IMG/VR virus record: IMGVR_UViG_3300047565_000055
Span: 1-34,126 of that record
DNA from: a virus
Lineage: Duplodnaviria > Caudoviricetes
Direction: 5' to 3' (one strand)
DNA: 34,126 nt
A program made the position numbers and the translations under genes. Shown piece by piece: positions 128 through 33,320 of this stretch (positions are counted from its first letter, which is position 1; each line of letters opens with the position of its first letter). The notes under the pieces were generated by a model. The model did not search any database. It was not told the DNA's origin and saw only the letters and a list, made by a program, of their open reading frames with translations.

Positions 128-538
128 CGTCCTGGATGCCAATTCCGTGTAACTATGAAACGACATGTTGTTGCACTCGTTCATGTAAAGCCATTCACGT
201 CTGGCCCCTCGCAATTTGGCGTCATTGTCTGCGCTGAAAAATTCGATCTGGGAACCGTTGCCAAATGTATATTTAAAATCCGTTGCATTCCACCGATCTT
301 CAAACCACCGGCCCGTTTCAAACATAATCTTTTTAAAATCCTTCATTGCTCCGCGCTTCAAATGCGGAATTGATTCCGCGACGATCGAGATTTCAGAAAA
401 CGGCGTCTTTGCCGCGATGTCGATTAATATCGGAATGATTGCGTACGTTTTGCCTGCGGACGTGCCCCCCTGGACGCCACGGATGAAACGGCGCATTTTA
501 AGTATTTTGTTGATCGCAGTCGTCCGGATAAATGCCAT
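1..538 (-). CDS. terL: Terminase large subunit, N-terminal ATPase part (PBSX-type); continues across the join into 33344-34126, about 397 aa in total
   Basis: Manual translation from ATG 538: MAFIRTTAINKILKMRRFIRGVQGGTSAGKTYAII (Walker A) ... KLRGARRDWLYMNECNN (Walker B) ... YMDWNP; in frame with the 33344..34111 ORF. Confidence 0.93.
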   Translation of the reverse strand, partial: MAFIRTTAINKILKMRRFIRGVQGGTSAGKTYAIIPILIDIAAKTPFSEISIVAESIPHLKRGAMKDFKKIMFETGRWFEDRWNATDFKYTFGNGSQIEFFSADNDAKLRGARREWLYMNECNNMSFHSYTELASRTKQGVYMDWNPTNPFWFHDELLNDKDVDFLIINYMDNEACPES

Positions 539-630
539 TAAAAAAGCAATTGAAAAATAAAATACCAAAACGCTACCCCGGTAAAAAACCAAACGGAAAA
601 CCCAAACAGTTTGTATTTATTCAACTTCAT
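538..630 (-). CDS. 30-aa hydrophobic membrane peptide between terS and terL (not in ORF track)
   Basis: MKLNKYKLFGFSVWFFTGVAFWYFIFQLLF; ACAACACAAC leader; TAATG stop/start overlap with terL. Confidence 0.6.
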   Translation of the reverse strand: MKLNKYKLFGFSVWFFTGVAFWYFIFQLLF

Positions 631-1003
631 GTTGTGTTGTTTCTGGGAATAAAGGTTGTTCAATGATCGTCTGTGTCATGTTCAAAGTTTCTTTCGGCTT
701 TCCGTATACCCTGGTCAATAGCGTATCAATCGAGTAAAGGCTGCCCTTCTCCAGGGACTTTCTTAATGCCCCGGCGATCGTCTTTTCTAAAACCGTTGCC
801 TTTGGATTGTCCCAGACGGATTTGAGTTCCTGCATGTCCATTGCCATTATCGCCTGGATGCAATCGTTCACCTCTGCCACCTTGTACCCTTGTTCCTTCA
901 ATTGGCTTACATACTTTCGCGGACGACCGTTCGGGTTGTTCGTTTCCCCTTTTTGCGGAATTGATAAAACGCCGCCATGTGCCTGCTTGACTTTCTTTGC
1001 CAT
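617..1003 (-). CDS. terS: Putative terminase small subunit
   Basis: KGETNNPNGRPRK motif and C-terminal LLTRVYGKPKE; directly upstream of terL. Confidence 0.7.
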   Translation of the reverse strand: MAKKVKQAHGGVLSIPQKGETNNPNGRPRKYVSQLKEQGYKVAEVNDCIQAIMAMDMQELKSVWDNPKATVLEKTIAGALRKSLEKGSLYSIDTLLTRVYGKPKETLNMTQTIIEQPLFPETTQHEVE

Positions 1004-1749: not shown

Positions 1750-2368
1750 CCAATACCCTTTTTTTGAATGTGGCAAAATCAAAGACGCGTTCCAATCCGC
1801 TTGTTGCTTTGTCCGACGTGCTGCCAATCGCGCAGCCACCCTGGCGCACTACCTGGCATTTAAAAATCGATTTGATCTGTTCCCACTCCTCGCTATCCTC
1901 GTCCGCCATGATCAAAACATATTCTTTTTTTGGAATTACTTGCAAAGACTTCTCCAGATGCAAAACGTCATCCTCCTCCATTTTGTCGATCTTGTCAAGT
2001 TCTGGAATATCCAAACCCCAATCCGTTAACTGTTCGACGTCCCAATCGGATTTTAATTCCTCCCAATTCCATTCACCAAATCCGACGTTGTCCTTGATCA
2101 AAAATTCTGCCCTTTGTTCTTCGGTCCAATCGTCCGCCAGGATTACCGGCAATTCTTTTAATCCGATTTCCTTTGCGGCCTTCAATCGCATATTACCACC
2201 CAGGACGACCAATTTTTTGTCTGCATCCGTGTAACAGATCAAAGGCCTTTTTGTCAACATATCCGGGAACTCATGCAGGGATTGGACAAGTTTATTAAAC
2301 TTGTCATCCTTGATAATCCGAGGATTATTTGGATTTGGCTTTATTTCCGATATTTTCCTGACTTGCAT
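1739..2368 (-). CDS. ParB/Srx N-terminal domain protein
   Basis: IKPNPNNPRII...VLGGNMRLKAAKEIGLKELPV...FLIKDNVGFGEWNWEEL. Confidence 0.85.
   Translation of the reverse strand: MQVRKISEIKPNPNNPRIIKDDKFNKLVQSLHEFPDMLTKRPLICYTDADKKLVVLGGNMRLKAAKEIGLKELPVILADDWTEEQRAEFLIKDNVGFGEWNWEELKSDWDVEQLTDWGLDIPELDKIDKMEEDDVLHLEKSLQVIPKKEYVLIMADEDSEEWEQIKSIFKCQVVRQGGCAIGSTSDKATSGLERVFDFATFKKRVLDAI
1769..1793 (-). promoter_or_regulatory. Variant of putative late promoter (GGAAC-N12-TTGCCACA) 19 nt upstream of the glycosyltransferase start
   Basis: TTGCCACA box exact; AAC box shifted by one base relative to the four full copies. Confidence 0.4.
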
Positions 2369-2564
2369 CTAACTTGTTTTTGTTTTCAAATACAAAACGG
2401 ATCAATTCATTTACGCAAGGTTGGCATCCACGAAATGAAAACTCCGATTCTGGATCAATGATTTTAGACAGTCGTTCGAACTCGATTAGTTCATCAATCG
2501 ACGGATGAACGTCGACGCCTGCGATAATTCTTTCGTAAAGGAATGTTTGAGATAATACGTCCAT
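2325..2564 (-). CDS. Hypothetical protein with CxxC (GCQPCV)
   Basis: 79-aa ORF packed between sigma-like and ParB genes; A-rich leader. Confidence 0.65.
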   Translation of the reverse strand: MDVLSQTFLYERIIAGVDVHPSIDELIEFERLSKIIDPESEFSFRGCQPCVNELIRFVFENKNKLDASQENIGNKAKSK

Positions 2565-2575
2565 AATTTTTGGTT

Positions 2576-3046
2576 TTAAAGATCCATGTGTTTTTTTATT
2601 TCAATTCTTGCTTTTTTAATCGTCTTGCAAATGCCAGAATATTCGATGCCGGTTATGGCCTCCACCTTTCTATAACTGCCATGTTCCGCATAAAGTTCGA
2701 GCAATTTGGCATCGTACCAATAAATTTTGTCTAAAGGTACAACAATGATTTCAATTGGCGATTCATCCGCAACGTCTGCAAACGATTCCAGTGCCGTTTC
2801 TCTGCCCTGCAACTTATTGAATGAACTTCTTTCCCACCTAACCATATTGACAAGCATTTTGGCCACGTATGCCACAAATTTGCCACGTTCAAACAGATCG
2901 ACGATGTCTGCGTCTGGCTTCAATAGCAATTCAGTAAATACGTGCTGCTTAACATCGTCGCGAATATCTGGCGGCTGAATCCTCGACAAACAATTCTCCA
3001 GATCCTTTGACCGGTAAAGTTCTTCGATTATGTCTTTTGCGTTCAC
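2576..3046 (-). CDS. Phage sigma70/ECF-like factor (putative late-gene regulator)
   Basis: Region-2-like DDVKQHVFTELL...FVAYVAKMLVNMVR and region-4 HTH SYRKVEAITGIEYSGICKTIKKAR; lies at the replication/late boundary; GTG start. Confidence 0.7.
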   Translation of the reverse strand: MNAKDIIEELYRSKDLENCLSRIQPPDIRDDVKQHVFTELLLKPDADIVDLFERGKFVAYVAKMLVNMVRWERSSFNKLQGRETALESFADVADESPIEIIVVPLDKIYWYDAKLLELYAEHGSYRKVEAITGIEYSGICKTIKKARIEIKKHMDL

Positions 3047-3082
3047 GGTATAAATTTACGGGTTTTTTGTTGTTTGTCTTTT

Positions 3083-3117
3083 TAGGGATGCGCAGCGTCA
3101 GCGTCGCGCATTCCCTA
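3083..3117. other. GC-rich hairpin flanking the origin-like element
   Basis: TAGGGATGCGC ... GCGCATTCCCTA (one bulge) enclosing AGCGTC x2. Confidence 0.55.
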
Positions 3118-3149
3118 TGTATTTATATTTATAGTTATATCAACTCGAT

Positions 3150-3375
3150 AGTTCTGTTATAGTTTTGTTATAACTCTGTTATTAAACGCTTGATATTCAA
3201 TAAATAGCACATGATTAAAATTTGACATATCGCATGTTTTGAACGTATGATAAAAATTCATCATGTATGACATTGTTTTTTGTAAAGTATTGGACATCAA
3301 CTGTTTATAAAATATGGTTAAAAAACCTCTGTTAATAACAAAATATAACAAACGTATAACAAAGTTATAACAAAA
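3150..3375. repeat. Putative replication origin: inverted arrays of phased iterons with two IHF-like sites
   Basis: TGTTAT at 3155, 3166, 3177; ATAACA at 3335, 3345, 3356, 3367; TATCAAGCGTTTA on - strand at 3183-3195 and CATCAACTGTTTA at 3295-3307; AT-rich, directly downstream of primase-helicase. Confidence 0.6.
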
Positions 3376-3380
3376 TGCAC

Positions 3381-5138
3381 CTAATCAATCGCTTCATATT
3401 GTCGCGATAAAGTATTGAAACTGAACGACGTAAAGCCAATTTTCCCAATCCACCACCAACGAATTTTCTGCACATAGGCCGTTACCACGTTAGTTTCAAA
3501 ATCTCGATAGATCGTCAACCCGTTATCTGTCTTATTGAAAAAATTAGCCGATCCGCTGATCGAATACATGGTTGGAACTTCATATTTCCCCGTCGCTTTG
3601 TCCTTTTGTAACTTGGTTGGATGCGCAATTAAAAAAATGTGAATCCCTAATTTCCTGGCTGCCATCCGGATTTTGGACAGTACGTCGGATATGTATTGGG
3701 TTTCTGTGTATCCGTTTGGTACCTTGTGTTCAATATAGTTCCAGGGATCAATTAGCAGCCCCTTGATGCCCTTACGCAATACCAATTCAGCCGTCTTTGC
3801 CAATATGCCGTCAATCGTTATATCCGCTTCCATCGTGTTTATAAAAAAGAAATTGTCGGACAGATACCCCGTTACCATCTCCAATTCAAATTTTGAAATT
3901 CCCGTCGAAGATTTGTTAAATGGCTTTTCGGATAGTTTTTCGATCAACTTGGTTGCATGGAATACCGGCGGCGAATTCTCGAAAGAACAGACGGCCCATT
4001 TCCATCCATGGTTAACTGACGTTTTGGCCATTAGCCAATCTGTGAATTCAGACTTTCCGGATCCAGGGATTCCGGTAATTGTCGTTAGGTCCCCTGGCAT
4101 GAATGAAATTAATTTGTCCAATGATTCGATTCCAATTTTTACCCCCTCTGGATAGCCGTTCTCGTAAAGATCAAAGATTTCTGTTTCCAGGGTTTCCTTT
4201 TCAACGATTCCCTTAATAGGAAACGGTATTGATTTCTCGATCATGGACCGGACGGCATCCGCCCCGTGTTTTATCAATACGTCGTTGGCGTCTTTGCAGT
4301 CGGACGGATATTGAATAAAAGAACATTTTTCGATCCCAAAACGCCTGGCCAATTCATCTTTGAGATTCTGCCCTACCTGGTCGTTATCCGTCGCGATAAT
4401 GATTTGTTTCTTGTCAATGAAATATTCTGCGCAGTTATCCAGGTACGGCAATTTCATTACTCCCTTTGGCGTCGTTCCATTCGGTACGCTTACCACGTTA
4501 TAAATTCCGGCCTCGTATAACGACATGGCGTCGATTTCACCTTCGACAATTACGGCCGTGTCTGTGTCCTTGATCGCATCAATATTGTAAAAGATCAATT
4601 CCGCATCTTTTGCCAATTTGAAATCCTTTCCAGGGCCGCGGAATTTTATGTTGATTAATTCCTCATTTCGAAAGTAATTAAAACAAACGACGTTGGTTTC
4701 TTTCTGGGCCTTTGGCATCCACTCAAACGATTGCGATATTTTGAACCTTAACAACGTATTGTTTGATATGCCGCGATCCTCAAAATATTTTATAAAATGC
4801 GGATGTATTTTCTCCAGACGTTGCACCGGACGGACATAATCTTTGGAATCCTTCTCCAACTCGAAATTATAGATCCTGGCGACATGCTCGACGGCATCAT
4901 TAAAGCCGCAGTTCGTGTGTTTCATAACAAACGCGAAAACGTCGCCAGATTCGCCGCACCCAAAACATTTGTAAAAATTACCGTTAACCGGTATTTTGAA
5001 CGACGGCGTTTTCTCGTTATGAAATGGACAATTCCCGACGTAATCTGAACCGGTGCGTTTCAACTTGATGAAAGTTTCAACGACCTCCGAAACCTTTGCA
5101 ATTGCTTTCAACTGCATGATTGATTCATGGCTTATCAT
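3381..5138 (-). CDS. Bifunctional DNA primase-helicase (CHC2 zinc finger + TOPRIM + DnaB/SF4 helicase)
   Basis: CPFHNEKTPSF...FYKCFGCG; IVEGEIDAMS, ATDND; GIPGSGKS Walker A, LLIDPWN, FLIAHPTK. Confidence 0.93.
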   Translation of the reverse strand: MISHESIMQLKAIAKVSEVVETFIKLKRTGSDYVGNCPFHNEKTPSFKIPVNGNFYKCFGCGESGDVFAFVMKHTNCGFNDAVEHVARIYNFELEKDSKDYVRPVQRLEKIHPHFIKYFEDRGISNNTLLRFKISQSFEWMPKAQKETNVVCFNYFRNEELINIKFRGPGKDFKLAKDAELIFYNIDAIKDTDTAVIVEGEIDAMSLYEAGIYNVVSVPNGTTPKGVMKLPYLDNCAEYFIDKKQIIIATDNDQVGQNLKDELARRFGIEKCSFIQYPSDCKDANDVLIKHGADAVRSMIEKSIPFPIKGIVEKETLETEIFDLYENGYPEGVKIGIESLDKLISFMPGDLTTITGIPGSGKSEFTDWLMAKTSVNHGWKWAVCSFENSPPVFHATKLIEKLSEKPFNKSSTGISKFELEMVTGYLSDNFFFINTMEADITIDGILAKTAELVLRKGIKGLLIDPWNYIEHKVPNGYTETQYISDVLSKIRMAARKLGIHIFLIAHPTKLQKDKATGKYEVPTMYSISGSANFFNKTDNGLTIYRDFETNVVTAYVQKIRWWWIGKIGFTSFSFNTLSRQYEAID

Positions 5139-6334: not shown

Positions 6335-6726
6335 AATGTGTTTTCCATCGTTAACGCCATGATCATTTGGGAACTCATTAACGGCGTATAATCCGCCAGG
6401 CCTTTGGCGATCCACAAACTGAATTTCTCCTGCAACCTTTTTGTTTTTAACTGATCCCGTTCAAAAGGTGAATCGACAAAGTAAAGAATTGAATAAGAAA
6501 TTTCATTTGTCTTTTTTCTTTCGCCTCTAAACTTGATCAAACCGGCATCCATCAAAACGCTAACCAATGCCGTTACAGTTTGGTGCGGCATGTCAAGTTC
6601 TATTCGCATTGTGTCAATATCCGTTCCAGGGTGTGCCTGGACGTAATCCAATACTCGGACAGACTTGATTTCCATTTCGCCGGTACCCATCAATTTAAGC
6701 CAATTTTTTACGCTTGCATCACTCAT
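6331..6726 (-). CDS. Winged helix-turn-helix protein
   Basis: VLDYVQAHPGTDIDTMRIELDMPHQTVTALVSVLMDAGLIKFRGERK. Confidence 0.65.
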   Translation of the reverse strand: MSDASVKNWLKLMGTGEMEIKSVRVLDYVQAHPGTDIDTMRIELDMPHQTVTALVSVLMDAGLIKFRGERKKTNEISYSILYFVDSPFERDQLKTKRLQEKFSLWIAKGLADYTPLMSSQMIMALTMENTL

Positions 6727-6767
6727 GTTGTTATTTTTTTAAGTTGTTTCCAAAATGGAAATAGTTG

Positions 6768-6808: not shown

Positions 6809-7081
6809 TTAGAAAGGCAAATCGTCAATTACATTCTGCGCCGGGGCCTCTGGCTGCTTTAAATCGGATTTCTTAAAATTACCGATATACACTTTTTTTC
6901 CTTTGGCCTCGCGTTCTTCCTTGCTTTGGCGAACAGAAACGGATCCGATGTTTCCGTATTGGTCAACGTCTGCGTTAATCCAAATGTCAATGTTCAAATA
7001 CAGTTTGCCATTCTTTGCCTGCGTTAATTTTTCCTTTGGAATGTCCGAAACGCAAATCGAACCGATTAATAACTGATTCAT
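6809..7081 (-). CDS. ssb: Single-stranded DNA-binding protein (small phage type)
   Basis: Acidic C-terminal DDLPF tail, beta-rich core, in recombination module. Confidence 0.7.
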   Translation of the reverse strand: MNQLLIGSICVSDIPKEKLTQAKNGKLYLNIDIWINADVDQYGNIGSVSVRQSKEEREAKGKKVYIGNFKKSDLKQPEAPAQNVIDDLPF

Positions 7082-7687: not shown

Positions 7688-8718
7688 ACTTCGACCATTT
7701 CAATTCCAGGAATCACGTTACCCGTTTCATTGATATGTTTCGCCAGGGCCTCCGCCATCTGACCGATCGTTAATTTCTGCCATGACTTAACCCGGACAAA
7801 CTTGTTACAGTATGGCCACAATCTGACAAAGTTTGAAACGATAGTTTTTGCCCATTGTTCCGATTCCTCCGCCACGACCTTCATTTCTTTTTTGACCTTT
7901 GGAGTTTCCACGATCAACGTTTCGGCCTCTGCGATCAAAGCATTGGTTGAGGTTTCCAAATCCAGATCCATCTGCATTGCCATTTCAGCAAGTTGTTTGT
8001 GTTTCTCGATGGATTCGATCGCCACGGCTGCATTCGCCAGATCATTTGCGTACGTTGACCATATCGCGTGAATGTTTCTTTTCGCAGTTTTCAAATCGTC
8101 CGCCGGATTGTATTTCTCGATGGAATCGAAAATTTCTTTCGCGTGTCCATCCTTTACATGCTTACGTTCAAACCTCTGAAACTCTGGCAATTTCCATCCG
8201 TCCAAAATCGATTCCATGTCTGCGATCATGCCCGGTATAAATTCAACGGGTTGCTTACTTTTTAGGCAATTTTGGTAAGATTCCAAGGTTATATTTTCCA
8301 ACTCGAAACGGTATTGCGACGCGATCCGAAACCACTCATTAACGATGTGCGCCTTCAATGCCGCCGCCTCGTTAGCAATCAACTGTTGCGACTGTGCAAC
8401 CTCTGCGGCTGCTTTGCGCATCTCCAACTCGATGGCTGCCCCTGCGTCAATATTTGCCGCCATGCGCTTTTCAAAATCCATCGTTGGCGTTATCAACTTT
8501 TCGTCAATCATTCTGGTGAACTCCAGGCGTTTCGCCTTTGCGTCCGCCATCGTCTGTTTTGCGGACTTCAAATTGTGTTGAACAACATCGAGAGGATTAC
8601 CCTCGATGCCGTTGATATAATCCTGCACGGCTAATTCAGCGCGCTGCAATTCGTCAAATAACGCGGTTTTTATGTCCGCTAACTTTACCCATCCAGACTG
8701 TATTGGTGTTAAGTTCAT
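7678..8718 (-). CDS. Coiled-coil protein of recombination module (DUF1351-like position)
   Basis: Long helical 346-aa ORF between SSAP and exonuclease. Confidence 0.6.
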   Translation of the reverse strand: MNLTPIQSGWVKLADIKTALFDELQRAELAVQDYINGIEGNPLDVVQHNLKSAKQTMADAKAKRLEFTRMIDEKLITPTMDFEKRMAANIDAGAAIELEMRKAAAEVAQSQQLIANEAAALKAHIVNEWFRIASQYRFELENITLESYQNCLKSKQPVEFIPGMIADMESILDGWKLPEFQRFERKHVKDGHAKEIFDSIEKYNPADDLKTAKRNIHAIWSTYANDLANAAVAIESIEKHKQLAEMAMQMDLDLETSTNALIAEAETLIVETPKVKKEMKVVAEESEQWAKTIVSNFVRLWPYCNKFVRVKSWQKLTIGQMAEALAKHINETGNVIPGIEMVEVCK

Positions 8719-9431
8719 AAAATAAAGTTTTGGATGTTTTTAGATTCCCTGGCAACATCAAGTTGCAGGCGTTGCCCCTCTGACAATTCAACGTTCTCGA
8801 CGGCCCATTCATACAACGTCAATTCAGAACCCGTCGCCATCTGTCCGGCCTCGATGCCTGCGCAAAGTTTGTCGAACTGTTCCGGCGTTAATACGCGCCT
8901 TGACTGCGTCGGGGCCTCGACAACCTCTGCCGTTGTTTCCTCTGTTACGGCCTCCATTTCCTCTGGGACATAAACGGGGTTTTCGTAAATGTCTGGCGTA
9001 TACCATTTGACGCCGTTGGACATGGCGCGCGCGAATAGCATGTTTTTTGGGAACTTGTCAAGGTTCTTTGTTCCTGCTTTCCTGGCGTCCTCGATCGTAA
9101 AAGTTGAAACGCCCAACGACATGATTTCATTACCTGGCAACTTCGCGCCGAATTCAATCGAGCAAATTTTGTCTGTGTGTTCCAATACTTTGTAATCGTA
9201 CTTCCCGAACCCCTTAACCCTGGCGGCCATCAAGCCGGCCCCGATTGTAGGTTTTCCCTGGATAATGTGAATTCCAGACATCGCAGCAAATGGACTGATT
9301 CCCATTTCTGCGCCTGCCATGATCTTAACAACGGCTTGTTGCGCCGACTTGATGTCGGAAAACATGCCCGACTTGAAAAATGTTTCTCCGATACTTAACG
9401 CGTCGGCTGCGCTTTTGACAATTTGATTCAT
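8715..9431 (-). CDS. Single-strand annealing protein (RecT/Red-beta-like recombinase)
   Basis: KIMAGAEMGISPFAAMSGIHIIQGKPTI...FPKNMLFARAMSNGVKWYTPD..PVYVPEEM. Confidence 0.75.
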   Translation of the reverse strand: MNQIVKSAADALSIGETFFKSGMFSDIKSAQQAVVKIMAGAEMGISPFAAMSGIHIIQGKPTIGAGLMAARVKGFGKYDYKVLEHTDKICSIEFGAKLPGNEIMSLGVSTFTIEDARKAGTKNLDKFPKNMLFARAMSNGVKWYTPDIYENPVYVPEEMEAVTEETTAEVVEAPTQSRRVLTPEQFDKLCAGIEAGQMATGSELTLYEWAVENVELSEGQRLQLDVARESKNIQNFIL

Positions 9432-9444
9432 GTTGTGGGTTTAT

Positions 9445-10513: not shown

Positions 10514-10529
10514 GTGTGTTGTTGTTTGA

Positions 10530-10620
10530 GATTCAAAGATAGTATAAAAAACAATATCCAAAACATTTTATAAAATATTTTTTATTTTTTTTATTGGAAA
10601 TAAATTCCCTATATTTGTTA
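10530..10620. promoter_or_regulatory. Divergent Bacteroidota-type early promoters
   Basis: TATCTTTG on - strand (10534-10541) and TATATTTG on + strand (10610-10617) match the TAnnTTTG -7 element; upstream TTG elements; AT-rich spacer. Confidence 0.75.
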
Positions 10621-11444: not shown

Positions 11445-11650
11445 ACACTACCAATTCAATATCTGAATACATAGACAAAAACCAAACGCGTAAAAATGTA
11501 CGTTGGCGGATCCATGGCGGCAAATGGTTCTTTGAACTTTTCCCCGGATTTTGGCAACATGAACAATCATTTGATTCATTTTTCCCAAAATATGAATTTG
11601 TCCGTTTCAACGACAAAGGATCCAACCCAGACAAAACTAAAATCGTATGA
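11441..11650 (+). CDS. Hypothetical protein (aromatic-rich)
   Basis: ATGA-coupled 69-aa ORF. Confidence 0.65.
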   Translation: MNTTNSISEYIDKNQTRKNVRWRIHGGKWFFELFPGFWQHEQSFDSFFPKYEFVRFNDKGSNPDKTKIV

Positions 11651-11859
11651 AAAAATACGCGATCAAATGCCGGACAATTTCCGGCAATACCTTGTATTTC
11701 TGCCACCAGATCGTTGCAGGCACAAAGCAAAACGTGTTCGTTCCTAACTTAAACCAGGCCTTGTTTTATACCGAAAAGCAAATCGACCAGGCCGAACTTG
11801 AATTACTTAAAAATGTTAAATATCATGACGTCAAATCCTATACAATTGAAATTCTGTAA
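11647..11859 (+). CDS. Hypothetical protein
   Basis: ATGA-coupled 70-aa ORF. Confidence 0.6.
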   Translation: MKKYAIKCRTISGNTLYFCHQIVAGTKQNVFVPNLNQALFYTEKQIDQAELELLKNVKYHDVKSYTIEIL

Positions 11860-13051: not shown

Positions 13052-13261
13052 TTATTGTTTTATTGTTATGGGTTTAATTTCAAAACATGTATTGACATAT
13101 TCCTCAACATCAATTTCCGTTTCCGCCTCGGTTATAGTGGCAAATAAATGCGCATTGTTGAAATTGGGTGTCCACCGATCCGACAAAGGTTTCGAATGAT
13201 CCTCTGTGTAAAATAAATCATTCGTTGCGTCAAGGATCACGTATTTGGTAACTACTGCCAT
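13052..13261 (-). CDS. Hypothetical protein (possible fibre chaperone)
   Basis: 69-aa ORF directly after the tail fibre gene. Confidence 0.6.
   Translation of the reverse strand: MAVVTKYVILDATNDLFYTEDHSKPLSDRWTPNFNNAHLFATITEAETEIDVEEYVNTCFEIKPITIKQ
13136..13160 (-). promoter_or_regulatory. Putative late promoter CAACA-N12-TTGCCACT upstream of the lysis cassette
   Basis: Exact spacing match to three intergenic copies. Confidence 0.6.
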
Positions 13262-19410: not shown

Positions 19411-20010
19411 TCAAATATAATATGGATCATTAGAATTAAAACCAGCCGGCGGACGCTTATTTAGTGAATATTCGTCCAATGGTATTTCTGTTTCATCACC
19501 CAGATAAATTGGCGACGTATACGACGCGCGTTCTGGATGCACAACATCAACGCCAGAAACAAAGTTCAAGTATTCCGGGAAATAATCGTCCGCGTACTCG
19601 ATCAAATAATTGCGCAGCATTTTGGCGTAATGTTCCGCCCTCGACTTATACTTTGCGACAATCGAATACATTTCTGACATGCTCGGTTGTGTCGCATTGT
19701 CGACTGTCTTTTGCGAAACGCCTTTATTCCAAAACTGATAATTTAACCCCTCTGGCAATTCCGACATAACATAATTGCAGCAACATTCAACGATATAGTT
19801 GTCGACCAAATTTTTGTAGTTGCCAGACAACGTGTTGTTTGATATGTCCGACAATATCTTATTGAACAAAGTTGAACCCAGAATTGGCATAATATACAAA
19901 TCCTGGACGGCTTTGATTTCCGGATATATCAATTTGTCATCAACATTATCATGCAACGACATGCGTTCTTTTATGACGGACGGCAAAATTAAATATGTTA
20001 CTGTTGCCAT
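19411..20010 (-). CDS. Putative head-tail adaptor protein
   Basis: Follows portal; NVDDKLIYPEIKAVQDLYIMPILGSTLF...FPEY. Confidence 0.6.
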   Translation of the reverse strand: MATVTYLILPSVIKERMSLHDNVDDKLIYPEIKAVQDLYIMPILGSTLFNKILSDISNNTLSGNYKNLVDNYIVECCCNYVMSELPEGLNYQFWNKGVSQKTVDNATQPSMSEMYSIVAKYKSRAEHYAKMLRNYLIEYADDYFPEYLNFVSGVDVVHPERASYTSPIYLGDETEIPLDEYSLNKRPPAGFNSNDPYYI

Positions 20011-22395: not shown

Positions 22396-22420
22396 TGTGG
22401 CAAAAAATGAACGTTTGTTG
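22396..22420 (-). promoter_or_regulatory. Putative late promoter CAACA-N12-TTGCCACA (portal unit)
   Basis: Between terminator and ATG 22388. Confidence 0.7.
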
Positions 22421-22424
22421 AAAT

Positions 22425-22452
22425 AAAAAAGGCCGCCATATTACCGGCGGCC
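22425..22452 (-). terminator. Intrinsic terminator after tail tube gene
   Basis: GGCCGCC-N8-GGCGGCC followed by T6. Confidence 0.8.
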
Positions 22453-22485
22453 CCTCATTGGTCATGTGTAAACCCACAACATGAA

Positions 22486-22998
22486 TTAGGTTGTCAAAGT
22501 ACCCAGGGCGGTTGAGTTAACCTCATACGCCATATTCTTCTCGTCGCCGCTAAATGCCAATTCATAGCCATTGCGATCTGCCAAAACCTTGCCGGTTTTT
22601 GCTGCAACTGAATCCATCATTAAACCATATTCGCGACCGTACATCCAACCGGTTCCGTTCTCGTCAACAAAAACAAAAATCAATCTGTTTTGTGCCAACA
22701 ACATCAACTCATTGCGAACTGCGGTTGTCATTTTGTTGATTGGGAACTTCACAGTTTGCTTGTTGCTCAAAGTACCCATTTCGCGGCTGCCTGCGAAGGC
22801 CTCGTCCGCCTCTGCGGTGTGCGCGATCAAATTATATTTCTTAAATGTCTTTGTTGCAACCTTTGTGATTGCGGTTATTACCCCGGCCGTTTCTGTAATC
22901 GCGGAAACGTTCTCGAATTCGATCACGTAAATTTCCTTTACTCCGCCGTAATTGAACCGACAATCCAGGTTGTAACCTTGTGTTAAACTACATGGCAT
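22486..22998 (-). CDS. Major tail (tube) protein
   Basis: MPCSLTQGYNLDC..GGVKEIY...FVDENGTGWMYG...TGKVLADRNGYELAFSG. Confidence 0.7.
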   Translation of the reverse strand: MPCSLTQGYNLDCRFNYGGVKEIYVIEFENVSAITETAGVITAITKVATKTFKKYNLIAHTAEADEAFAGSREMGTLSNKQTVKFPINKMTTAVRNELMLLAQNRLIFVFVDENGTGWMYGREYGLMMDSVAAKTGKVLADRNGYELAFSGDEKNMAYEVNSTALGTLTT

Positions 22999-23054: not shown

Positions 23055-24053
23055 TTAACCCAGATACAGAACGTTGTTCGCTTGACGTGCAACATGCGCG
23101 GCGATTGTGAAAATGTGTTTCACAAACATATCCTCACGGTTGTTGGCTACCTTGTTGATTTCCATCTTGTTGATGTCTGCCACCAGGTCGGTGCACCAAA
23201 TCAAGTTTGAGGGCAACGCGGCGATTATACAATTCTCTGGAACGGGAACGAATTTGATTTCGATTCCGTTGTAGAAATATTTGTCGGCCTTGATGTCAAC
23301 GCTGAACAGATCGCGATATGTTGCACTAACATTAAAAATGTTGATGAACTGTTTGTGTGAATATGGCGCGTAAAGGAAAGGCTTTTCAGTTTGAGCAAGA
23401 ACAACGGCCGGAATTGCAGCGTAAACTTTACCGTATTCGGTTGCTACGTTTGTGCTTGAAATGGTAGTTCCTGCAACCTTAACGCGTGTTCCCAATGCGC
23501 CATTGTTGTAGATCATTTTTGCGACAACGCCATCGAATTGAGTTGCAGTTTGTGCGGCTGCCCAGGTTTGTTCTGCGGCTCCAACTTGGTTCTGCGCAGT
23601 TCCAGGAGTTAGGCCTGCAATTGAAGTTTTTGTTGCGGCCAAAATACCAGACCACCACTTTGTTTCTGCATCCAATGAAACCTCTTTACCGTATGCGGCA
23701 AGTACAGTTCTTTCAAATTCAGTTGACATCATTTCCCAGGCTCCTGGCTTCATTGACCTTTTGAACCTTGACGGCCTCAAAGTGTTCGGATCAAATTCAT
23801 GATAGAACATTACTTTGGTTGGGGTTACTGCGGTGTCAACCAATGAAAATGTTCCATTGCTTGTTGGTGTGCCGGATGAATACGCCTGCAATGCAACGAT
23901 GTTAGTATTCTCGGTGAAAATACTTTCGTTCTTAACATCGCTTTCAAACGAAACTAAATTTTCAGAAATGGTTTTGTTCTCAAATAAAAGTTCTTCTAAT
24001 ACGGGTTCGTATGCCTTGCCGCGTATGTCTACAATTGTTGCTGAAATTGCCAT
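23055..24053 (-). CDS. Major capsid protein
   Basis: 332 aa following protease and scaffold; QFDGVVAKM, FYNGIEIKFVP, SNLIWCTDLVAD. Confidence 0.8.
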   Translation of the reverse strand: MAISATIVDIRGKAYEPVLEELLFENKTISENLVSFESDVKNESIFTENTNIVALQAYSSGTPTSNGTFSLVDTAVTPTKVMFYHEFDPNTLRPSRFKRSMKPGAWEMMSTEFERTVLAAYGKEVSLDAETKWWSGILAATKTSIAGLTPGTAQNQVGAAEQTWAAAQTATQFDGVVAKMIYNNGALGTRVKVAGTTISSTNVATEYGKVYAAIPAVVLAQTEKPFLYAPYSHKQFINIFNVSATYRDLFSVDIKADKYFYNGIEIKFVPVPENCIIAALPSNLIWCTDLVADINKMEINKVANNREDMFVKHIFTIAAHVARQANNVLYLG

Positions 24054-24809: not shown

Positions 24810-24834
24810 TGTGGCAAATTTTAAAATGTTGTTG
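24810..24834 (-). promoter_or_regulatory. Putative late promoter CAACA-N12-TTGCCACA (scaffold/capsid unit)
   Basis: 19 nt upstream of ATG 24790. Confidence 0.7.
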
Positions 24835-32390: not shown

Positions 32391-32415
32391 TGTGGCAATT
32401 TCAGACCGTTTGTTG
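32391..32415 (-). promoter_or_regulatory. Putative late promoter CAACA-N12-TTGCCACA (tail unit)
   Basis: Between terminator and ATG 32384. Confidence 0.7.
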
Positions 32416-32450: not shown

Positions 32451-32600
32451 TTATTTTCCTTGCAACTTTTTTAAATGATTCTTAACCGCCAGGGCAATCA
32501 TTTTGCGATTGTGATCTGTATTTGGAAATGAACATTTACCGGCAAATTTTAAAATCCTTGTTGCCTCTTCGATCGTCATTTTTTCGTTGAAAGTTATCAT
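32451..32600 (-). CDS. Small early hypothetical protein (cassette 3)
   Basis: Start MITFNEK behind TATCTTTG promoter. Confidence 0.65.
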   Translation of the reverse strand: MITFNEKMTIEEATRILKFAGKCSFPNTDHNRKMIALAVKNHLKKLQGK

Positions 32601-32614
32601 GTTGTATGTTTTAG

Positions 32615-32670
32615 GATTCAAAGATAAGGGATAAAACAATATGTTTAATAATATTTTAAAAATATTTTAA
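32615..32670 (-). promoter_or_regulatory. Bacteroidota-type early promoter with AAAACAATAT box
   Basis: TATCTTTG at 32619-32626 (- strand); shares GATTCAAAGATA with 10530-10541. Confidence 0.7.
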
Positions 32671-32912: not shown

Positions 32913-32932
32913 GTGTGTGTTGTTATTTGTTT

Positions 32933-32988
32933 GGTAAAGATAAAACAATAATGTTAAATAAAGCAAATAAAACAATATCTTTTTTTTT
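32933..32988 (-). promoter_or_regulatory. Early promoter with two AAAACAATA boxes (near copy of 33233-33288)
   Basis: TTG...TATCTTTA on - strand. Confidence 0.65.
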
Positions 32989-33199
32989 AGATACTTTTTT
33001 TCTCGATCACGCCCTTGATGATTATGTACTTGACCGTTGTGTTTTGAGATACAAAGCAATCAATTCCGTTTGCGAAAAGGATCATTGCCATTACGTCGGC
33101 CTGCTTGAAATTGCAGTACGATTTTGGGAATAAACCGTATTTTGTTTCAACCGCGTAAGCATTAAGGCCGTTTCTTAATTTTACTGTTTTAATTTCCAT
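32987..33199 (-). CDS. Small early hypothetical protein (cassette 1)
   Basis: Start MEIKTVK behind duplicated promoter. Confidence 0.65.
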   Translation of the reverse strand: MEIKTVKLRNGLNAYAVETKYGLFPKSYCNFKQADVMAMILFANGIDCFVSQNTTVKYIIIKGVIEKKSI

Positions 33200-33232
33200 G
33201 ATCTTGTTTTTTTTGTGTGTTGTGATTTGTTT

Positions 33233-33288
33233 CATAAAGATAAAACAATATCGTTAAATTAGACAAGAAAAACAATATCTTTTTTTTA
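33233..33288 (-). promoter_or_regulatory. Early promoter with two AAAACAATAT boxes
   Basis: TTG...TATCTTTA on - strand. Confidence 0.65.
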
Positions 33289-33289
33289 A

Positions 33290-33320
33290 AATAAAAGAGG
33301 CCCAGGTAAAAACCCAGGCC
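33290..33320 (-). terminator. Intrinsic terminator after terL
   Basis: GGCCTGGGT-TTTT-ACCTGGGCC then TCTTTTATTTT. Confidence 0.7.

Follow-up and report, generated by a model that had tools for sequence, protein, structure and literature searches.

The RNA that runs past the stop codon of the likely tail tube gene of an uncultured freshwater phage is complementary to the start of the recombinase mRNA of the same phage. As judged by sequence, this complementarity is real and selected-looking, with partial co-variation among relatives. The 3' end of the capsid and tail tube transcript probably acts as a trans-acting antisense RNA that represses translation of the recombinase, and that the pairing between the tube 3' untranslated region (UTR) and the recombinase start is a selected RNA pairing in some form is regarded here as very likely.

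The stretch of DNA analysed (34,126 nucleotides, hereafter the window) comes from a record that represents a complete circular phage of about 34.0 kb with a terminal repeat of 127 nt, and its minus strand carries the recognisable genes. Sequencing runs listed as containing the stretch are mostly freshwater metagenomes, the best-matching of them perhaps the source sample, and include no RNA datasets. RecT homologs in GTDB genomes were found in Bacteroidota at six of seven loci, and no tail tube homolog was found in GTDB genomes. The target gene at 8715-9431 (minus strand, 238 aa) encodes a RecT-like ssDNA-annealing protein (phrog_561, E 1e-13), in agreement with the original prediction, which had named an SSAP. 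The gene upstream of the UTR, at 22486-22998 (minus strand, 170 aa), had been called a tail tube; it likely is one, with a tube-like fold in its structure model (pLDDT 73) and Foldseek matches that are weak but consistent, the top rows being mostly tail-tube-fold chains with a best E of 2e-3 and none at or below 1e-3. A likely major capsid gene (23055-24053, minus strand, 332 aa) was assigned by gene order and by its Atlas neighbours, of which the nearest named clusters are Phage_cap_P2 and Phage_capsid (score 0.98; in each, a minority of members carry the family). The fold model of this capsid ORF was unusable (pLDDT 28), and PDB sequence searches gave no significant match.

An exact match was confirmed between the plus strand at 22469-22486 and the reverse complement of 9426-9443. 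The antisense segment (22469-22486, minus strand) begins with the final base of the TAA that stops the tube gene (22488-22486) and, by virtue of this match, the minus-strand RNA past the tube stop complements positions -12 to +6 around the AUG of ORF 8715-9431, that is, the leader (-12 to -1), the AUG and the second codon of the recombinase mRNA (9426-9443, minus strand). The two sites lie 13 kb apart, both on the minus strand. Complementarity extends to 27 of 30 nt (9414-9443 with 22469-22498) by reaching into the last codons of the tube (22487-22498, minus strand), and this extended pair heads the list of 591 inverted pairs in the window. The extension into the tube codons is not retained in the four paired relatives. 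The segment had been judged not to be a plus-strand gene, and the antisense frame indeed runs for 2 codons in the window and for 4-71 in 17 classified tube-end copies; a plus-strand small ORF was ruled out, as its frame and length differ among relatives.

Exact inverted matches of at least 18 nt between distant sites were present in 15 of 300 order-2 and 14 of 300 order-4 Markov genomes, so that 18 nt on its own is an event of about 5%, close to the few percent estimated beforehand. Another exact inverted match of 18 nt (4782-4799 with 10564-10581) occurs in the window; it is AT-rich, partly palindromic and probably due to chance. The extended 27/30 match scores 24, a value reached by none of the 300 order-4 simulations (maximum 23).

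The UTR was predicted to fold as described earlier, into a hairpin followed by a terminator. The hairpin (22462-22484, minus strand; arms 22484-22479 with 22467-22462) has a 6-bp outer stem with a predicted energy of -5.8 kcal/mol and exposes GUUU in its loop. The predicted intrinsic terminator (22456-22427, minus strand) marks the end of the capsid-tube transcript, and the folding z of the 81-nt region is -3.3. Across 14 aligned UTRs, 97.6% of the hairpin cells are paired. Both-sided changes are found at only one of six hairpin pairs, as against five of nine (compensatory) pairs in the terminator stem, and the hairpin arm is therefore conserved as sequence, loop included.

Co-variation was assessed by a duplex scan of 24 genomes, comprising the window and 23 related genomes, some of them incomplete, of 22-37 kb, each with its own tube UTR; two fragments without a recombinase (G014 and G015) were excluded from these counts. 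About 1,900-3,100 segments were scanned per genome, and 815 starts from other phages' loci served as controls (mean -10.1, sd 3.0, minimum -22.1 kcal/mol). The best genome-wide duplex of the UTR was a start-codon region in nine of the 24 genomes (G000, G006-G009, G013, G001, G002 and G010). In all nine the UTR-start duplex beat all 815 control starts, and the top start led the second by 4.9-17 kcal/mol. The cross matrix of UTRs and starts was block-diagonal, with cognate pairs at -24.5 to -35.9 kcal/mol in the window clade, -17.1 to -20.6 in G001/G002 and -24.2 in G010, where the partner is the start of a gene for a DUF3987 primase-helicase (the next-best start reaches -14.2). Cross pairs between the three blocks ranged from -5.6 to -17.0 kcal/mol.

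The RecT proteins of G001 and G002 are a separate lineage (62-65% identity), with their own branch in the SSAP tree, a quick tree. Here the UTR and the recombinase start each differ from those of the window yet match each other (own pairs -20.6 and -17.3 versus cross pairs of -11 to -15 kcal/mol), the pairing being built on a 9-nt centre common to the window type and extended into the codons, not the leader; their 9-nt start motif occurs at 5 of the 815 control starts. In G013 an AAA_24 protein, presumably Sak4-like, replaces RecT and the matching leader is retained, although this could merely reflect a swap point located after the ATG. The RecT genes of G010 and G011 fall within the RecT clade of the window (SH-aLRT 92) but are without its leader, and their UTRs are altered too. 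A second helix of 7-9 bp is formed in G007-G009, where the partner is bipartite with unequal spacers. Since the two sequences have changed in concert in some relatives, pairing of the late RNA with the recombinase mRNA is likely.

The co-variation that the original prediction had proposed as a check was thus seen as three cognate blocks in nine genomes, and was absent or weak in the other 15. Loss of complementarity in close relatives, which had been named as evidence against the idea, was found in part. Among the 14 genomes with a tube identity of at least 77%, no start-codon partner above background was detected in G003, G011 and G054 (97-100% complete) or in G012 (a fragment, 75% complete), and G055 has only a weak AT-rich start partner, which 1 of the 815 controls equalled. 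None of the ten more distant genomes has a start-codon partner. G003 retains the hairpin and GUGGGUU without a partner of its own; the duplexes of its UTR with the leaders of the window clade and with the primase start of G010 (-18 to -21 kcal/mol) are stronger than any with its own starts, and its seed had 18 exact hits in viral contigs, none recognised as a start from this phage group. This fits a relic left after a module swap, or a UTR aimed at an unseen host target. In G011 the best hit of the UTR, with 11 exact nt, falls within the coding sequence of RecT (L136 near 6977-6995) and the primase leader has short partial matches to the UTR; neither was counted. The second-best partner of the G010 UTR lies within its RecT gene, a few codons from the site in G011.

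Six of the nine positives carry one inherited motif, and the scan therefore contains only three independent blocks, one of which is a single genome (G010) and one two genomes (G001/G002). The margin of G001 over the best control is 0.4 kcal/mol, with 4 of the 815 controls matching at least 13 nt, and the genome-level P values of 0.04-0.06 are the floor set by the size of the control.

Of 33 viral loci in which the 3' end is complete, 19 have a 15-nt core of the segment (22471-22485) after the tube stop; metagenome loci entered this comparison as UTRs only, without their recombinase genes. Among distinct UTRs grouped by tube identity, the core was found in 11 of 13 at 85% or more, in 0 of 18 at 75-85% and in 0 of 20 below that. 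In the 11 it is unchanged, loop bases included, with indels in its flanks. Pairing of the core is purely Watson-Crick, and no G-U-compatible substitutions were seen in it. Conservation of the UTR could be due in part to the hairpin. On the target side, a matching leader stands upstream of the recombinase at 11 of 80 loci, every one in the RecT clade of the window. Among the window genes with orthologous starts in all of G006-G009, the 10-nt recombinase leader is identical across these genomes, a constancy shared by just one further leader, that of the gene starting at 20010. An exact scan of viral contigs returned at least 118 loci; among the matches listed, 17 are tube ends, 11 are starts (7 RecT-like, 2 with the N-terminus of the AAA_24 gene and 2 unrelated) and 90 are other sites.

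The predicted duplex has an energy of -26.0 kcal/mol, and opening the two sites costs 7.0 and 2.7, which leaves about -16 kcal/mol net. The loop GUUU is predicted to be unpaired with a probability of 0.9-1.0, and the recombinase leader to be largely open. Pairing would begin where the exposed loop meets the open leader, after which the hairpin would melt and 15-18 bp form over positions -12 to +6 of the recombinase start, AUG included. Translation of the recombinase would thereby be blocked once the late genes are expressed, and strand annealing or replication that would compete with packaging may be stopped.

The antisense RNA would be late and abundant, belonging to the capsid operon with its own candidate promoter. 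This putative late promoter, CAACAA-N11-TTGCCAC with a fixed spacer, has four copies in the window and none in 100 shuffles, and is also present in close relatives. The copies, all on the minus strand, are located at 24811-24834, heading the scaffold-capsid-tube transcript, at 22397-22420, directly after the terminator, and at 32392-32415 and 13137-13160; one copy precedes the first morphogenesis gene, another the scaffold-capsid-tube block, a third follows the terminator and the fourth belongs to the lysis region. Atlas neighbours of ORF 2576-3046 carry Sigma70_r4, ECF or GerE domains, which makes a late sigma-like factor of the phage plausible, and the motif is perhaps read by this ORF. A candidate early promoter of the form TAnnTTTG, which we take to be a host-type consensus, lies at 10535-10555 (minus strand), upstream of the gene run that includes the recombinase. 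Neither motif was found inside the tube CDS of G000, G006-G009, G013 and G010, and the G001/G002 tube has one TAnnTTTG 218 nt before its stop. In the window clade, TAnnTTTG and the late motif thus provide no internal promoter, the mark of a type I 3'UTR-derived sRNA. With no promoter motif in the tube gene of this clade, the UTR would act as an mRNA end or as a processed fragment. It shares the intrinsic terminator of its parent mRNA, as a type II (processed) 3'UTR-derived sRNA requires, and the antisense segment would form the tail of a late mRNA of roughly 2.4 kb, or be cleaved from it as a fragment.

A broader reading is put forward tentatively and with some doubt. The 3' end of the late mRNA that is most abundant in lytic Bacteroidota phages may be a built-in, retargetable repressor that mirrors the start of a DNA-metabolism gene, constituting a protein-free late-to-early feedback and one case of wider anti-leader tails. 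Its target would be RecT, the AAA_24 replacement or the primase-helicase, depending on the lineage, and would be shut off at packaging.

The original prediction further held that the core complements the starts at 630, 6726 and 32600. The 9-mer core has exactly four plus-strand sites in the window (627, 6723, 9428 and 32597). The starts at 6726 and 32600 are ORF starts (6723-6731, of a 131-aa HTH gene, and 32597-32605, of a 49-aa ORF, both minus strand), but 630 lies within the last codons of the ORF at 617-1003 (627-635, minus strand) and opens only a 30-codon frame. Duplexes at 630, 6726 and 32600 (-17.8, -14.7 and -15.7 kcal/mol) are inside the control range. A multi-target regulon via the 9-nt core was rejected, the sites not standing above the 815 control starts; it is unsupported because the extra sites are ordinary Bacteroidota-type leaders. 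What stands of the earlier interpretation is a selected, thermodynamically feasible trans pairing, with conservation in the clade and co-variation in a second lineage; the multi-target part does not.

Other terminator spacers, after terL and after a 90-aa gene, are rich in U and G and show loose complementarity to A/C-rich leaders, in most cases with no partner that stands out. As such spacers are also loosely leader-complementary, the specific pair may be a tuned case of a more general feature. Carried further, the UTR might belong to a low-specificity class of anti-leader tails that damp many phage or host mRNAs or bind a U/G-preferring protein, with the recombinase match a by-product or minor tuning. 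We consider this unlikely. The loose complementarity of these spacers speaks for it, as do 13-15 nt low-complexity leader matches of spacers in G054 and G009, the persistence of TTCAT among more distant tube UTRs (8 of 18 and 3 of 20), and near-matches in Chitinophagaceae, of which 30 were inspected and fell on unrelated genes, 10 of them on plausible starts. The wide lead of the best start over the second in the nine positive genomes is at odds with low specificity, and the host data also argue against such a class. TTCATG was unseen in 29 readable host groEL UTRs (30 loci), and a generic host 3'UTR motif was rejected; TTCATG was likewise found in 0 of 20 other host spacers, a small sample from 400 kb of two genomes in which TTTCAT occurred 2 times against 0.4 expected. 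Near-matches were present in 72 of 201 Chitinophagaceae genomes, by eye without evident excess over a reversed control, and a conserved host target was rejected.

The effect of the duplex could also be reversed or mutual, such that the early recombinase mRNA binds the late 3' end and opens its hairpin or makes a nuclease site, suppressing premature capsid and tube message. The duplex has to melt the conserved UTR hairpin, and co-variation carries no direction, both of which are compatible with this possibility. In all three blocks, however, the duplex covers the AUG or the immediate leader, a position of consequence to target translation but not to the late RNA; moreover, the terminator stem is untouched by the duplex and the capsid-operon RNA should be in excess. 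On balance a reversed effect is distinctly unlikely, and repression of the recombinase by the late RNA is preferred.

Coincidence combined with independent constraint, in which the UTR is kept by its hairpin and the leader by the demands of translation efficiency, with both resembling the common leader consensus, is very unlikely. It gains from the frequency of 18-mers in simulated genomes, from the second such match in the window and from the several close relatives without a partner, but the match would have to arise by chance separately in each of three lineages, twice at the recombinase start, and the loop bases are conserved in sequence while the terminator stem bases vary. An element acting at the DNA level (inverted recombination sites, protein-binding sites or short copies homogenised by the phage recombinase) would agree with a purely Watson-Crick core, with an encoded annealing protein and with two inverted sites around a 13-kb block, yet it is highly improbable, given that all close relatives in which both genes were found carry tube and recombinase on one and the same strand, that the contigs of 4 runs (one of which covers the stretch at identity; contigs drop rare forms) contain no strand-switch joint, and that the partner overlaps a start region in every case, belongs to a different gene in G010 and is bipartite in G007-G009.

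To our knowledge, the shut-off of phage recombination and replication at packaging is usually ascribed to proteins. If the preferred reading is true, a structural-gene mRNA end that doubles as a repressor would couple this shut-off to virion supply at no coding cost, and would show antisense control where mRNAs lack Shine-Dalgarno sequences. As the window, G001 and G010 variants are ready-made compensatory pairs, repression of the recombinase by the late RNA is directly testable by reporter. The mirror between UTR and start is also a searchable signature for hidden regulators in phage genomes.

The tube UTR shows several features expected of a trans base-pairing RNA, namely complementarity to the initiation region of a distant target, co-variation, and a seed predicted to be accessible and to hybridise favourably. 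It is not a cis-encoded antisense RNA of the OOP, sar or aQ type, the sites being 13 kb apart and both read from the minus strand. The C4 antisense RNA of phages P1 and P7 is likewise trans-encoded, with target sites that co-vary between related phages; it is a structured, processed RNA of the immunity region that acts on its own operon. Rfam 15 (including C4) gave no match at the tube 3'UTR locus up to E = 1, and the sole hit in that search was RT-5 at 11629-11725 (E 0.21), under its gathering score. Full-text literature searches, with subscription papers mostly outside their scope, found no late phage mRNA end that represses an early DNA-metabolism gene in trans, consistent with the earlier remark that such a late-to-early RNA feedback was not recognised as described.

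In Bacteroides, start-codon pairing by GibS and FopS represses mRNAs without a Shine-Dalgarno sequence (PMC7366714, PMC11697453). In the portions of these reports drawn on here, the two B. thetaiotaomicron RNAs resemble the tube UTR in belonging to the likely host's phylum, in having a short seed followed by an intrinsic terminator, and in pairing beside or across the start codon of mRNAs lacking Shine-Dalgarno sequences; 1 of 14 members of the FopS family is classed there as 3'UTR-derived (PMC11697453). By the same accounts they are host-encoded, mostly have their own promoters, act on multiple targets and present a single-stranded seed, whereas the tube UTR is phage-encoded, forms the end of a structural operon, has one dominant phage target and holds its seed partly in a hairpin. 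By analogy, the tube UTR would work like a 3'UTR-derived or FopS-type sRNA. CisR of Vibrio cholerae, as described in the part of its report consulted, likewise derives from an mRNA 3' end, and base-pairs in trans with the mRNA of a phage, which it represses; it is host-encoded, Hfq-assisted and targets a CTX-phage gene (PMC13250501), whereas here, on the evidence of sequence, both regulator and target are phage-encoded.

Among phage regulatory RNAs, OOP, aQ, sar and sas are cis antisense RNAs, and VpdS, PreS and 24B_1 act in trans (PMC12197685, bioRxiv 10.1101/2024.10.31.621285). Like the pairing proposed here, they pair with mRNA to steer development, and sar blocks translation initiation. 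By their descriptions in these sources they are cis-encoded, or are stand-alone sRNAs that act on lysis-lysogeny or host genes, and none of the seven as described there is a capsid-tail mRNA 3' end directed against a recombination or replication gene. A supplementary table cited in one of the sources holds 38 uncharacterised phage sRNAs that may bear on novelty (PMC12197685).

Several minor observations were made. A TTTC(T/C/A)A(C) loop, possibly protein-binding, is common to many terminator hairpins after terL, the 90-aa gene and some tube genes; such terminators, preceded by U/G-rich spacers, were seen in G003, G004, G006-G009, G012, G024, G054, G055, G057 and G058. The terL 3'UTR of G054 and the tube 3'UTR of G055 each have a low-complexity 13-nt match to the leader of a gene with the same N-terminus, the gene matched in G054 being a helicase-methylase. 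The 30-codon frame at 538-630 (minus strand) is hydrophobic, overlaps the end of ORF 617-1003 and reaches the likely terL start. Inverted AT-rich repeats (3148-3182 and 3344-3375) surround a 64-codon ORF just downstream of the primase-helicase gene and may be an origin or operator. In G003 an early-region cluster of small genes (L121:6520-8830), with N-termini suggesting nucleotide-metabolism functions, replaces window genes. Repeated A/T-rich promoter-like blocks lie directly behind terminators at 32914-32993, 33214-33293, 10525-10584 and 32610-32669, each heading a small early ORF in what resembles a cassette-like early region.
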